Notes under the pieces: model-generated
The model's input: only the letters and a program-made list of their open reading frames with translations
The model's database searches: none
What the model was told of the DNA's origin: nothing
Assembly (NCBI GenBank): GCA_046482545.1
Contig: JAWOEX010000021.1
Span: 64,001-128,000, forward strand
Length of the DNA: 64,000 nucleotides
DNA from: Candidatus Thorarchaeota archaeon
Lineage (GTDB): Archaea; Asgardarchaeota; Thorarchaeia; Thorarchaeales; Thorarchaeaceae
Direction of reading: 5' to 3'
Part shown: in pieces, positions 2,001-6,481 of the stretch
How positions within the stretch are numbered: the first letter of the stretch is position 1
How the letters are laid out: every line of letters starts with the position of its first letter
Made by a program: the position numbers and the translations under genes

Positions 2001-2915
2001 TTATACGTAGAGTCTTCCCCGTAAGACAGTTACAGCCTTACCGCTGACCTTGACTTGGTTAATCTTCTCTTCATTACCTCTGATTTCCACGTACACCTTC
2101 CCTGGACGGCCAACAAAGTCTCCTTGTTCAATTACTATGCTGGTAACTGGATTAGAAGAATCCATCATACCGTATTTTACCATGTATGACGCCATCCCAC
2201 CCGCTGCAGACCCGCTTACTGGATCCTCGGGAACACCTAGACCAGGCGCAAAATGACGGGCATGAGCATCAGAAGTTTCCTCCCTTGCATCACGGGTGAA
2301 AACCTGAATAGAAACGTAATCGGAATCCTTGCGTAGCTCCTGAAGAGCTTTCCAGTCAGGACGAATTCTCTCAAGAGATCTGTATGTATTGACAGGAATC
2401 ATCAGGTGAGGAGTCCCAGTCGAGACAGTTTGAATGGGCTTCGGGGACATGATATCTGCAAGAGTCAAGCCAAGGGCGTTTGCATATTCCTTCGGATCGT
2501 AGCTTGTCAAGAATTGTGGGGGTTGATGCGTAATCTGAATTTCATAAACCTGAGAGCGTTCGTTTTGAACCACCTCTACTTCAAAGACACCTGTATTGGT
2601 TTCAAACGTAAACATTGTGATGTGATTCGTGGCCTGAGCGATGCCTTCACTCAGCAATGCATTAAACGCAGCTACAGTTGCATGACCTGAGAAATTGATT
2701 TCACGGTCTGGTGTCATGTACCTGAACCGATAATCGGCTATATCAGAATCCGATACGTAGACTGTTTCCCTTACATTGAACTCCCGCGAGATTTTGTGCA
2801 TCATTTCCCTGCCAAGCTCATCAGCACCTAGAATGACTGTTGCAGGATTGCCTCCGAAGGGCACGTCGGTAAATGCATCAACATGCACAACATCGAATTC
2901 ATATTCGTGAGACAT
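2001..2915 (-). CDS. PhzF family (diaminopimelate epimerase-like) isomerase
   Basis: VDAFTDVPFGGNPA, EINFSGHAT, EDPVSGSAAG, IEQGDFVGRPG motifs. Confidence 0.9.
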   Translation of the reverse strand: MSHEYEFDVVHVDAFTDVPFGGNPATVILGADELGREMMHKISREFNVRETVYVSDSDIADYRFRYMTPDREINFSGHATVAAFNALLSEGIAQATNHITMFTFETNTGVFEVEVVQNERSQVYEIQITHQPPQFLTSYDPKEYANALGLTLADIMSPKPIQTVSTGTPHLMIPVNTYRSLERIRPDWKALQELRKDSDYVSIQVFTRDAREETSDAHARHFAPGLGVPEDPVSGSAAGGMASYMVKYGMMDSSNPVTSIVIEQGDFVGRPGKVYVEIRGNEEKINQVKVSGKAVTVLRGRLYV

Positions 2916-3380
2916 CTTATGGGCATCTCCTTGAAGCATTATTATTCAGTACGCTAATTAACGATTCCATTGGCCTCATAGTATGAATGAAGCGGAACAA
3001 GAACAATCATTCATCATTTCCAGCAGAGAGAGAATATGAAACCTAAACCATGATTGAATGAGATACAACAGCGGCATGCGAATATCAGCATCAAGCGGAT
3101 TTTCATTCGTCTCGTCAACCTGAAATAACTGACTACTGATGTCTAGTAAAATCCAAGGGTTGGATATGACCTGATTATGAAACAGCCGCTCAGCATCTCT
3201 TGTTCTTATGTATTCGAGTCCTACATCAGGCTAATTCTCATCATTTTGACTCGCATCGTATTCGTTGTGTCAGATAATACTGTTTGCTGAACTGTGGTGC
3301 TGAACAAGCGTCCGGATGCAAAAAGGGGAATCTAGGCAATCAGGCCGCACAACATTATTATTTGTAGACTATGTGCTAAG

Positions 3381-4200
3381 GGCCAAGTGGGTATCCGTCT
3401 CCACGGAGCACGGAGGTTGAGGGTGTTGAATTTGCCTTCACCTAACAGAGAACAGCAATCATCGGACACAGGGTATCAAGTCCTGGAGAGTCCGCGGCTG
3501 TTCACCATGTCCAGACGGACCTCCTCAGCTACGGTGACAAGGCTGAGGTGGGTGATCATGACCACGCCGTGGCAAGAACTGTGGAAGACCTCGCTGTCAC
3601 CGGGAGTGATGATCCGGGATGACGACAGGAGGAGGAAGCCAGGACCGCGGGAGGAATCCCATTCCGATGAACGTAGACAAAGCCCTGCTAACTCACGGGC
3701 CTACGGGTACCTTGGGGGCGGTGACGCTGGCAGGGGAAGGCCGGAACACAGAAGTTTCAAACAGTGTACGCAACTGTAAGAAACAGGTCATCTGGAGCTC
3801 CTCACTAGGAGGGAGCTGGCGGGACATAGATTGCGAAGAATGTTCACCTAGGGGCACTCGGCTGCTAACGCAGCTGAGTATGTTGAACTCTTCGATAGGA
3901 ACACCGTTGCCCGCCAGAGTTCCCAGAGAACCTGTAGTAGTCATATCAATTAGACTCATTGGCGACAACTCCACAGTTGCCGGTTTTCGAGGGCTCCAGG
4001 TTCACCTTACAATCTGTTTCTTGTAATTGAGTGAGAGCAACTTCGTAAGACTTCTGTACTCCACCTAGTCGATAATGAAGAGCTGACTGCGTCAAGTAAG
4101 CTCTCAATGCATTTGAAGGTCTGGATCAAGAAAAGTAGGAAGCAGTACTTAGATGCTCACCGGGAAGGCCAGAAAGAGAGTGCAGATGCAAAGAATCCAA
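3381..4200 (+). ncRNA. Putative large structured non-coding RNA of unknown family (core 3381-4024, probable 3' extension to ~4200)
   Basis: GC-richer than its flanks, no credible ORF. More than 10 helices readable by eye, including nested long-range pairs 3778-3789/4012-4023, 3816-3823/3910-3917, 3450-3456/3497-3503 and 3928-3934/3997-4003. Non-Watson-Crick positions are G-U on the + strand. TATA-like TTATTATT at ~3355. Confidence 0.7.
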
Positions 4201-4224
4201 TTGAATTTGTAGATAATAGAAACA

Positions 4225-4358
4225 AAGCAAAAAGGTGGCGACCACGCGATCGTGGTAGGAGGGGGGAGTTTCGTAATTGAGGGCATGTAACGAAAAACTA
4301 GACGCGTGATCGCCTCAATTCATTCATGCCATTCCAACTACGTTTTCTTTCCTATCAC
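4225..4358 (-). ncRNA. Putative small structured RNA, copy 1
   Basis: 52-nt core (4252-4303) identical to copy 2, enclosed by 12-bp stem 4237-4248/4303-4314 whose single C-A on + is G-U on -. U-rich 3' tail on the minus strand; TATA-like element at 4382-4389. Confidence 0.7.
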
Positions 4359-4634
4359 GAATTTTGTATACCGCCGACTTCTTATTAAACTTCCGATTGT
4401 AGACTAGTTTAGTAGACTTTAACTTCTATGGAACTCGGTTACTCTTTCGAAGTATCAAGTCTGAGTTTTTTGGTATTCGAAAATATTGGGAAAGAAGATG
4501 CATGAAAGTCTACAAAAGCGTAACCAAAGTCGAAGCCAGAAGAACTTCTAGAGGCATAGAAGGTGACGAGTGCGCGGATATAGTGGTAGGAGGGGGGAGT
4601 TTCGTAATTGAGGGCATGTAACGAAAAACTAGAC
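4252..4634. repeat. Perfect 52-bp direct repeat, two copies (4252-4303 and 4583-4634)
   Basis: GTGGTAGGAGGGGGGAGTTTCGTAATTGAGGGCATGTAACGAAAAACTAGAC occurs twice, 331 bp apart. Confidence 0.95.
4376..4395 (-). promoter_or_regulatory. Probable BRE/TATA promoter of small RNA copy 1
   Basis: Minus strand CGGAAG-TTTAATAAGAAGTC; the 13-mer TTAATAAGAAGTC is shared with copy 2 at an equivalent distance from the predicted 5' end. Confidence 0.6.
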
Positions 4635-4684
4635 CACGCACTCGCCTTGTTTATTCGTCATACCCTATGTTTTCCACCAATCAC
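4555..4684 (-). ncRNA. Putative small structured RNA, copy 2
   Basis: 52-nt core (4583-4634) enclosed by 13-bp stem 4565-4577/4634-4646 of different sequence from copy 1; two A-C/C-A on + are G-U on -. Same promoter motif at 4701-4713. Confidence 0.7.
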
Positions 4685-4700
4685 AGGGTTCTAGAAAATG

Positions 4701-4719
4701 GACTTCTTATTAACTTTTG
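4701..4719 (-). promoter_or_regulatory. Probable BRE/TATA promoter of small RNA copy 2
   Basis: Minus strand CAAAAG-TTAATAAGAAGTC. Confidence 0.6.
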
Positions 4720-4831
4720 TAAAGCAGACCATTTTAACTCGGGTAAGACAAAGATGAATCAGAATGGGTTTAATCTATCAAGATTGTTCTCAAATGATGG
4801 AATGGGGGGAACGCCCCTAGAGTATTCATTC

Positions 4832-6481
4832 TTACTCGTAGGGGTGTGAGATGCTTTCCTCTTCCATTTTGTCAGGGCGACTGCGTTTCCTCCACTCCTT
4901 TATTGGCATACTGAACTTGTCCTCAACCCTGTCACGATGGATAGTATTCATAGTGCAGAATGGGATGATTCTTCCGTCAGGAACACTGTAATTGATATCA
5001 CAGTGCTGCACACGCTCCAAGTCGAAATTGTACGGATCTTGGAAGTGCATCATACCAATCATGATAATGCGGTGCATAAACTCAGATAGTGAGTCATAAT
5101 CGCCTTTCTTCAGAAAAGCACCAAGCAAATCTTTCATCAATCCTTTTCGCTTGACATGGCGCAGTCCTGCGGCTAGTTTGGCTTTGGCCCGCTTGCCGGC
5201 AGCGAACTTCCCATCCGCATAGAGATTGCAGATGCCTTCCATAAGCTCAATGAATTTATCCACATCGATAAGATTGGTAATCGGCTCGTATCTCCCATCT
5301 TCATTGATGTAAATGAAGGTAGCCATACCACAGGCAAAGTGAGCACTAAGTTCCAATTGTGGAGTTCCTTTCATGAGCCCCATTGCTCGACCGATAGGCA
5401 TCATTCCCGGCACCGGATACCATTCTGATGCGGGAATTTTGCCATCAGTCTGTTCTTCGATTTTGTGAATCACATCGGGGATTGTTATTCGCATTTCTTG
5501 CCGCTTCTCATAATCAATCCGTCCTGTGATGCTGACAGGCTGGAAGTTCACACAACGAACAACGTCCTGGTTCTCCACAGCAAACTCGATAATATCGCCA
5601 ACCTGATCATCGTTTACACCTCGTACAACTGTAGGGACAAGGACAATCGAATCTAGGCCCACCTCTCTGCAGTTTTCGATGGCCTGCTTCTTCAACGGCA
5701 GCAGGTTCATCCCTCGTGCCGCTTCATAGGGCTCGGGTGTCACACCATCAAACTGCATGTAGATTGTCGACAGACCAGCTTCTTCGAGCTCTTTGGTATA
5801 TTCAAGTGATTTACCAAGGCGTATGGCATTGGTTGCAATCTCAGTATGCTTGAAACCAACGTCTTTGGCCCAGCGAAGATACTGTGGAAGATGCTTGCTG
5901 ACGGTAGGTTCGCCCCCTGCAAATTGAAGTGCTGGAGTTGGAACAGGCTTGTTGCTTCGAAGGTTCTTCATCATTTCTAGAACCTCTTCAGGAGTTGGCT
6001 CATACACTTCACCAGATTCTGCGGCGTGAGCGAAACAAATGGGGCATCGGAGGTTACACCTATTGGTGACATCAAGAAGAGCAAGTGCAGTATGCGATTT
6101 GTGCTCTGGGCACTGACCACAATCTTCTGGACAACCGTGTACAGTCTCTGTGCGAGGGTTATCAAGGCCTACTGTTTTGTACCACCACTTCTGGGCTTTC
6201 CTGAACATGTCGGCATCGCCCCAGTAGACATCTATAAACTCTCCATGTTTCTCACATTCTTTCTTGTACATAACCTTGCCATCTTCTTCGTAAAGAGTAG
6301 CATCAATGACATTAACCTCATCATCTGCTAACAGGCAATCAGGGCATATGGATTGGGTAGTATATGGTAGCTGACGTATCTCGTGTTTCTCAACGTGAAA
6401 TCGTGAGATATCATGCTCTTCATCTTCGAAAGGAAGCTCACTAGAAGGAACTGGTTCAATATCTGGTTCCATGAAAATCAA
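4832..6481 (-). CDS. tes: Radical SAM tetraether lipid synthase (Tes / GDGT-MAS, MJ0619 family)
   Basis: N-terminal SICPDC...CEKHG, GCPEDCGQCPEHKSHTAL, radical SAM CNLRCPIC, GGEPT, C-terminal FQDPYNFDLERVQHCDINY..DGRIIPFC. Confidence 0.85.
   Translation of the reverse strand: MIFMEPDIEPVPSSELPFEDEEHDISRFHVEKHEIRQLPYTTQSICPDCLLADDEVNVIDATLYEEDGKVMYKKECEKHGEFIDVYWGDADMFRKAQKWWYKTVGLDNPRTETVHGCPEDCGQCPEHKSHTALALLDVTNRCNLRCPICFAHAAESGEVYEPTPEEVLEMMKNLRSNKPVPTPALQFAGGEPTVSKHLPQYLRWAKDVGFKHTEIATNAIRLGKSLEYTKELEEAGLSTIYMQFDGVTPEPYEAARGMNLLPLKKQAIENCREVGLDSIVLVPTVVRGVNDDQVGDIIEFAVENQDVVRCVNFQPVSITGRIDYEKRQEMRITIPDVIHKIEEQTDGKIPASEWYPVPGMMPIGRAMGLMKGTPQLELSAHFACGMATFIYINEDGRYEPITNLIDVDKFIELMEGICNLYADGKFAAGKRAKAKLAAGLRHVKRKGLMKDLLGAFLKKGDYDSLSEFMHRIIMIGMMHFQDPYNFDLERVQHCDINYSVPDGRIIPFCTMNTIHRDRVEDKFSMPIKEWRKRSRPDKMEEESISHPYE

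Follow-up and report, generated by a model that had tools for sequence, protein, structure and literature searches.

The window analysed here is a stretch of 64,000 nucleotides of a Candidatus Thorarchaeota genome, and its longest gap between open reading frames (ORFs) of at least 140 aa extends from 2940 to 4831 (1892 bp, the runner-up measuring 739 bp). On the left, the gap is bounded by a gene of the phzF family (2001-2939, minus strand; Pfam PF02567, E 1e-64), which lies downstream of the small RNAs described below and keeps its synteny with the small RNA throughout the family of genomes; its product reads NFSGHA at a site where PhzF proteins usually carry a cysteine (FCGHA). On the right, upstream of the small RNAs, lies a radical SAM gene (4832-6481, minus strand; PF04055 and PF23545), presumably of the tetraether lipid synthase type and here called tes on the basis of its domain layout. 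The initial annotation had described the gap as an island without a credible protein gene, in which a densely helical plus-strand RNA converges on two duplicated minus-strand RNAs. The gap is as exceptional as it was said to be, but it is not free of protein genes, as it contains a homolog of a protein gene at 3792-3999 and a broken ORF at approximately 2976-3241. The latter (2976-3241, minus strand) is frameshifted near its start in this genome, is open (76-78 aa) in two relatives of the same genus (G001 and G002), belongs to no known family and is supported by 27% amino acid identity over 66 aa (E 1e-5). Within 2976-3340 (minus strand), a common TGA and about 30 more conserved codons lie in frame upstream of the small ORF of G001 and G002, suggesting that this stretch is the remnant of a longer gene. 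Two plus-strand ORFs of 130-135 aa in the gap gave no Pfam match, and both run through the repeat and the gene fragment discussed below. Searching the 2940-4830 region against Rfam gave chance-level hits only. RNase P RNA (RF00373) and SRP RNA (RF01857) had no match at the gap, and the true genes of this genome are located on contigs C34 and C28.

The two minus-strand units are copies of one small RNA, with a 55-nt core in common at 98% identity. Copy 1 (4230-4358) comprises a leader, a closing stem (4303-4314 with 4237-4248), an invariant loop and ACC followed by a U-rich tail, and copy 2 (4556-4684) a leader, a closing stem (4634-4646 with 4565-4577) and the same loop. A TATA-like box precedes each of them by about 25 nt (4382-4389 and 4707-4713, respectively), which bears out their separate promotion, and the G-U pairs of the closing stem agree with the proposed minus-strand assignment. 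The minus-strand folds are more stable than those of shuffled sequences (z -3.75 and -3.19).

The 55-nt core occurs in 27/27 genomes of the family. A profile search of a 141-genome sample of the phylum recovered the small RNA in all 23 genomes of the family (23/23), in the one genome of its sister family (1/1) and in none of the other families; it is a Thorarchaeota-wide family without members in the other Asgard families searched. Genomes carry from one to nine or more copies, the third copy of this genome being located on contig C24. At 21 loci of other genera the interval from tes to phzF, mostly 340-870 bp long, contains a single copy, and duplication of the small RNA at the locus was seen in the genus studied here. 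The closing stem covaries, with two-sided changes at 9 of 12 pairs, a result equalled by 0/500 shuffles on three measures, and far lower values were obtained with slid controls. The loop (~55 nt, U- and C-rich) is near-invariant, hairpin inserts being accepted only between four fixed modules, and in most copies a TATA-like box is placed 60-135 nt upstream of the loop. Both copies of the window belong to a subfamily with a leader; in a second subfamily the promoter directly precedes the stem and the leader is missing. Based on its distribution across the family, its covarying stem and its own promoters, it is very likely that the small units are functional RNAs.

An Rfam search with a small RNA of the second subfamily returned chance matches only, no description was found in the literature searched, the coverage of which is incomplete, and a pattern search of viral contigs found no copy; the small RNA is an undescribed family. 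With regard to expression, an 87-nt adapter-bounded metatranscriptome contig matches copy 1 at 4262-4348 with a depth of 25, compared to 2-9 for neighbouring unique contigs of the run, which lends weak support to transcription of the small RNA. Such contigs attest to the presence of the organism and carry no strand, end or level, and uncovered parts prove nothing. Hairpins inserted within the invariant loop were observed in the second small RNA of G001 (L147) and of G002 (L056:1384-1610, with two inserts), and similar inserts occur in L060 and in the C24 paralogue.

The loop shares CCUCCUAC with the 3' tail of the 16S rRNA, and two of its modules can pair with the variable leader (p<=0.05) in 37% and 32%, respectively, of 38 leadered copies, kin among these not being independent. 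Based on these two observations, the loop can be read as a pairing surface for Shine-Dalgarno (SD)-like sequences. It may be proposed, with slightly less than even confidence, that the small RNA acts in trans by pairing with G-rich, SD-like sequences and that the leader can mask the loop. In this model the variable stem would hold the near-invariant U- and C-rich loop open, and the G-rich, SD-like sequences frequent in the small RNA's own 5' leader could mask it. The family, its stem and its synteny are observations, to which the pairing role is added as a proposal. C-rich base-pairing sRNAs such as RsaE/RoxS and RNAIII mask ribosome-binding sites, and the feature that characterizes C-rich anti-SD sRNAs, a conserved C-rich loop lying exposed in an RNA with its own promoter, is present here. 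With RsaE/RoxS and RNAIII the small RNA has in common its own promoter, the exposed C-rich loop and the existence of several paralogues; in contrast, it shows no sequence or Rfam similarity to them, is closed by one long stem and has a far more invariant loop. Two points count against the pairing model: GGAGG precedes the start of only ~7% of long genes, which weakens a pure anti-SD role, and a near-invariant loop of 55 nt is more than SD pairing needs.

This invariance, unchanged over ~55 nt with hairpins tolerated only between the four modules, is what the main rival to the pairing model would explain, namely, that the small RNA acts chiefly by binding protein or by catalysis, in a fixed tertiary fold held by leader-loop pseudoknots, rather than by pairing with mRNA. 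The repeated presence in the leaders of complements to two of the modules fits such a fold as well, but the existence of the leaderless second subfamily implies that the pseudoknots are dispensable, no match to a ribozyme or to Rfam was obtained and no Ro60/TROVE protein was detected in the genome (98.9% complete); we hold this rival in some doubt, with a substantial probability nonetheless. A third possibility is that the small RNA serves as an rRNA guide or chaperone of the H/ACA or snR30 type, as might be indicated by the ACA or ACC with a short tail behind the stem and by a 15-bp match to 16S rRNA (including G-U pairs). It is improbable, since shuffled sequences formed duplexes as good as the best ones with 16S, 23S, tRNA, RNase P and SRP RNA in 15, 4, 11, 27, and 18 of 30 cases, respectively (the 16S and tRNA sets being incomplete, with two 16S pieces and just 21 tRNAs recovered), the loop contains no K-turn strands and is identical in all paralogues, unlike that of guides, and the stem is longer than the 14-16-nt rule allows.

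Archaeal H/ACA guide RNAs have an ACA-like tail and Y RNAs a pyrimidine-rich loop, and the small RNA resembles both in that its ends are paired into one stem, with the tail as a further likeness to the former (ACA after the stem in one subfamily, ACC in the window copies) and the loop to the latter. With no pairing to rRNA or tRNA above shuffles, no K-turn and no Ro60, both an archaeal H/ACA guide and a Y RNA are unlikely. The two 16S pieces of this genome (C2:258-1487 and C33:32736-33583) overlap partly and differ at several sites, and may represent paralogues, a strain mixture or contamination.

The plus-strand unit is of a different nature. The initial annotation presented 3381-4200 as one densely helical unit with no transposase, reverse transcriptase, Cas gene or integrase nearby, and neither the single unit nor the lack of a mobile-element link was confirmed: the whole stretch reaches z -2.6 compared to shuffles, but only 3790-4006 is unusually stable (z -3.85), with 3381-3500, 3475-3790, and 4006-4220 at chance, and the core of the unit belongs to a dispersed repeat that is linked to tnpB genes at other sites of this genome. 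The segment 3475-3797 gives 81 BLAST matches in the genome at E<1e-4 (54 of at least 250 nt; 70-93% identity), which correspond to a protein-less element of ~560 bp with sharp ends and more than 50 copies. Left and right ends form 36 pairs spaced 532-583 bp apart, the element family occupies ~31 kb of the genome, and 11 of 25 short full copies are flanked by an exact 5-bp target duplication, e.g., CAAGA or CTGGA. In six copies the right end and the scaffold overlap the 3' end of a tnpB gene, and two parents of ~8 kb, containing tnpB and a giant gene on the opposite strand, possess both the left and the right end and are flanked by exact 5-bp duplications. The ~560-bp element is the right end plus omegaRNA scaffold of the 8-kb TnpB transposons of this genome. 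According to a structure derived from the alignment without R-scape, 37 of the 132 consensus pairs of the scaffold show two-sided changes among 28 copies (92% paired), as expected for a guide-RNA scaffold; Rfam searches with the tnpB-linked scaffold gave chance matches only.

The TnpB proteins of this family have a glycine at the position of the RuvC-II glutamate (IGRL) and an alternative glutamate (PENWTS), and retain the RuvC-I and RuvC-III aspartates and the zinc finger. Relatives of this genome's TnpB carry the label Thorarchaeota, from which a Thorarchaeota-type Asgard host follows. At RuvC-II they are like the TnpBs with a rearranged RuvC-II described as RIIr clades (PMC10691335), a likeness at the level of motifs. 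The same study reported the motif GTTCACTCA downstream of the tnpB genes linked to aCas1 in Asgard archaea (PMC10691335). In many copies of the present genome GTTCACTCA follows a variable stretch downstream of tnpB, as it does in the aCas1-TnpB systems Cas1H-Asgard-1/-2, likewise from Asgard hosts (PMC10691335), and the window copy has a variant hairpin in its place. Those systems encode aCas1; here, in contrast, no Cas1 was detected with Pfam or CRISPR-Cas1 profiles in the genome or beside 54 related tnpB loci, where a divergent aCas1 could escape such profiles, and the search did not recover the enzyme responsible for moving the element.

Protein-less elements carrying omegaRNAs have been reported (Meers et al., PMC10055086), as have standalone omegaRNAs (PMC10691335). 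The element described here is similar to the PATE-like TnpB derivatives (PMC10055086) in being protein-less and multicopy, with left and right ends and a structured RNA that overlaps the tnpB 3' end in the parents and whose guide would derive from the flank; it differs from them in its 5-bp target duplication, inverted-repeat-like ends, ~430-nt scaffold and 8-kb parents with a giant protein of no assigned function. These duplications and ends are not those of an IS200/IS605 element, which makes no target duplication, uses a Y1 transposase and has asymmetric hairpin ends.

The window copy of the element comprises the core and right end (3475-3791, plus strand; 90% identity to the ~560-bp consensus, with the match starting at consensus position 243, reaching the right end and bordered there by CTGGA). 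This copy is a truncated relic without the intact left end needed for renewed movement. It breaks 6 of the 89 core pairs of the scaffold fold, which is typical of copies, and its 20-nt flank has no exact target elsewhere in the genome. Upstream, 3348-3474 (plus strand) contains a TATA-like box (~3353-3362) and an old, diverged 5' domain kept in the relatives of the genus, with 72-81% identity to G001/G002 over 52-90 nt and only ~50% to young element copies; judging from its resemblance to the 5' part of the element's omegaRNA, it is probably homologous to that part. The identity to the best copy steps from ~50% to 90-100% at ~3470. At the orthologous locus of G001 and G002 the 5' part (3348-3437) and 3790-4000 are kept and ~280 nt of the core are missing. 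Considering that four-fold sites are 36-47% identical between this genome and G001/G002 and that the core is 90% identical to young copies, the young core in the window would most simply reflect a recent re-insertion at a CTGGA site or a gene conversion. The 3' junction is spanned by two contigs from the metatranscriptome with 100% identity and no read was seen to bridge the 5' junction (~3475), where a local misassembly could have occurred; the high depth on 3475-3760 is due to other copies of the element. At 4000-4065 (minus strand) another right end of this element was recognized, decayed and oriented towards the first one; it matches element ends at 74-83% and the end of the consensus at 69% over 55 nt.

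Between these two inward-facing transposon ends lies a frameshifted fragment of ~210 nt of a radical-SAM-like gene (3792-3999, plus strand), with a terminal closing helix whose arms are the CTGGA target sites of the element. The copy of G001 matches the radical-SAM-like protein with 39% identity over 43 aa (E 3e-7), and at the DNA level the fragment is 52-56% identical to the gene of a further genome, G004 (z 6.5-8.5), where the match lies inside a 311-aa ORF of a small family labelled radical-SAM-like by motif resemblance and having no Pfam match. Relative to the protein gene, the fragment of the genus contains several frameshifts. A covariance model of 3786-4010 run on 80 genomes of the family recovered only the genus and two copies in G004; pattern searches of metagenomes for the 210-nt domain found none, and no radical-SAM-like gene of this kind was found in viral contigs. 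More broken fragments of the same gene, from before and after the piece in the window, were noticed in this genome at C3:5129-5224 and C30:6129-6440. G004 harbours two paralogous pairs of radical-SAM-like genes (contigs C19 and C67; L161/L162), in which a 13-bp inverted repeat closes the stretch homologous to 3792-3999.

In spite of its origin, the fragment is 83% identical in G001/G002, compared to 36-47% at four-fold sites. This conservation at near-saturated neutral divergence, along with the stable fold of the region, raises the possibility that the 5' domain and the 210-nt fragment form a domesticated, genus-specific structured RNA (~370 nt in G001/G002) into which the young core was inserted in this genome. 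One-base indels rule out selection at the protein level, two pairs show two-sided changes, both arms of the closing helix have changed together relative to the G004 gene, the G004 paralogues are identical at 72 of 72 synonymous codons in this stretch vs 68-76% outside it, and unique contigs were obtained in 4/4 RNA runs. Conversely, only three sequences are available, the closing helix is missing in five more distant genes of the radical-SAM-like family, gene conversion can also account for the identity of the G004 paralogues, and cover in the RNA runs is as low as on neighbouring spacers, where DNA carry-over is possible. Weighing both sides, we place domestication just below an even chance; it is compatible with the explanation favoured below.

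Whether the three RNAs act together, e.g., as a scaffold or ribozyme plus guides or antagonists in an RNA-only system, can be judged from their distribution and pairing. The units lie next to each other and converge in three genomes of the genus and part of the large unit is constrained, as this proposal would have it. Still, the expected co-occurrence fails both outside the genus, where none of the 21 loci with one small RNA (0/21) has any trace of the large unit, and within it, as G001/G002 lack the 280-nt core, which is a mobile repeat. The covariance model finds just the genus and the coding homolog of G004 among the 80 genomes, and pairing between the small-RNA loop and the large unit does not exceed that of shuffled sequences (20/30 as good). 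An RNA-only system is very improbable, being already largely refuted by the phylogenetic pattern; of the units claimed as functional RNAs, the small ones keep that status and the large one loses it as a new large ncRNA, consisting of an omegaRNA copy and a gene fragment.

Altogether, it is probable that two unrelated things lie side by side, an old small-RNA gene and a composite relic of transposon and gene fragment. An old Thorarchaeota small-RNA gene between tes and phzF would have been duplicated in this genus, and the ancestor of the genus would have gained, downstream of it, a composite of two tail-to-tail copies of the TnpB derivative flanking a piece of the radical-SAM-like gene. In the simplest history, two insertions in opposite directions into that gene gave rise to the composite, which moved to the gap and decayed; the right copy would have been reduced to its end, and the left one would have lost its core in G001/G002 and carry in this genome a young core acquired by CTGGA re-insertion or gene conversion. 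Transcription of the plus strand would yield an omegaRNA scaffold with a guide reading into the gene fragment. The parts of the composite are observed and the order of events is reconstructed from them. We consider unlikely a more far-reaching account, according to which the small RNA is a new, lineage-defining Asgard class with a switchable fold, its loop masked by the leader through two pseudoknots in one subfamily and exposed in the leaderless one, controlling translation or binding a conserved protein, and the adjacent transposon ends turned the gene fragment into a new conserved structured RNA.

To our knowledge, RNA regulators have hardly been described from the archaeal relatives of eukaryotes. 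The small RNA is present in every Thorarchaeota genome searched, has no match in the RNA database and has a loop whose conservation greatly exceeds that of neutral sites. The large unit belongs to a kind already known and the claim of a multi-RNA machine falls; the locus shows that the guide-RNA repeat of a transposon can mimic a "large ncRNA", and it may also illustrate, in nature, how the capture of a protein-gene fragment gives rise to a new RNA gene.

As for the parents of the element, the tnpB of this clade is divergently paired with a giant protein (1400-1960 aa, with a PD-(D/E)xK-like motif) at 40 of the 54 tnpB loci, and also within the 8-kb elements. In this genome (G000) such loci are located at C28:2911-8799 (L157), C28:136704-141473, C20:230621-234817, and C23:117546-122100, with others at L148-L151 and L202-L216. 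The giant protein has no match in Pfam, PDB or the Atlas, and might serve as the missing transposase or as a partner nuclease guided by RNA. In two elements, a conserved ORF of 224 aa is located between tnpB and the giant gene (L248, G000 C28:135866-136537, and L247:2079-2751).
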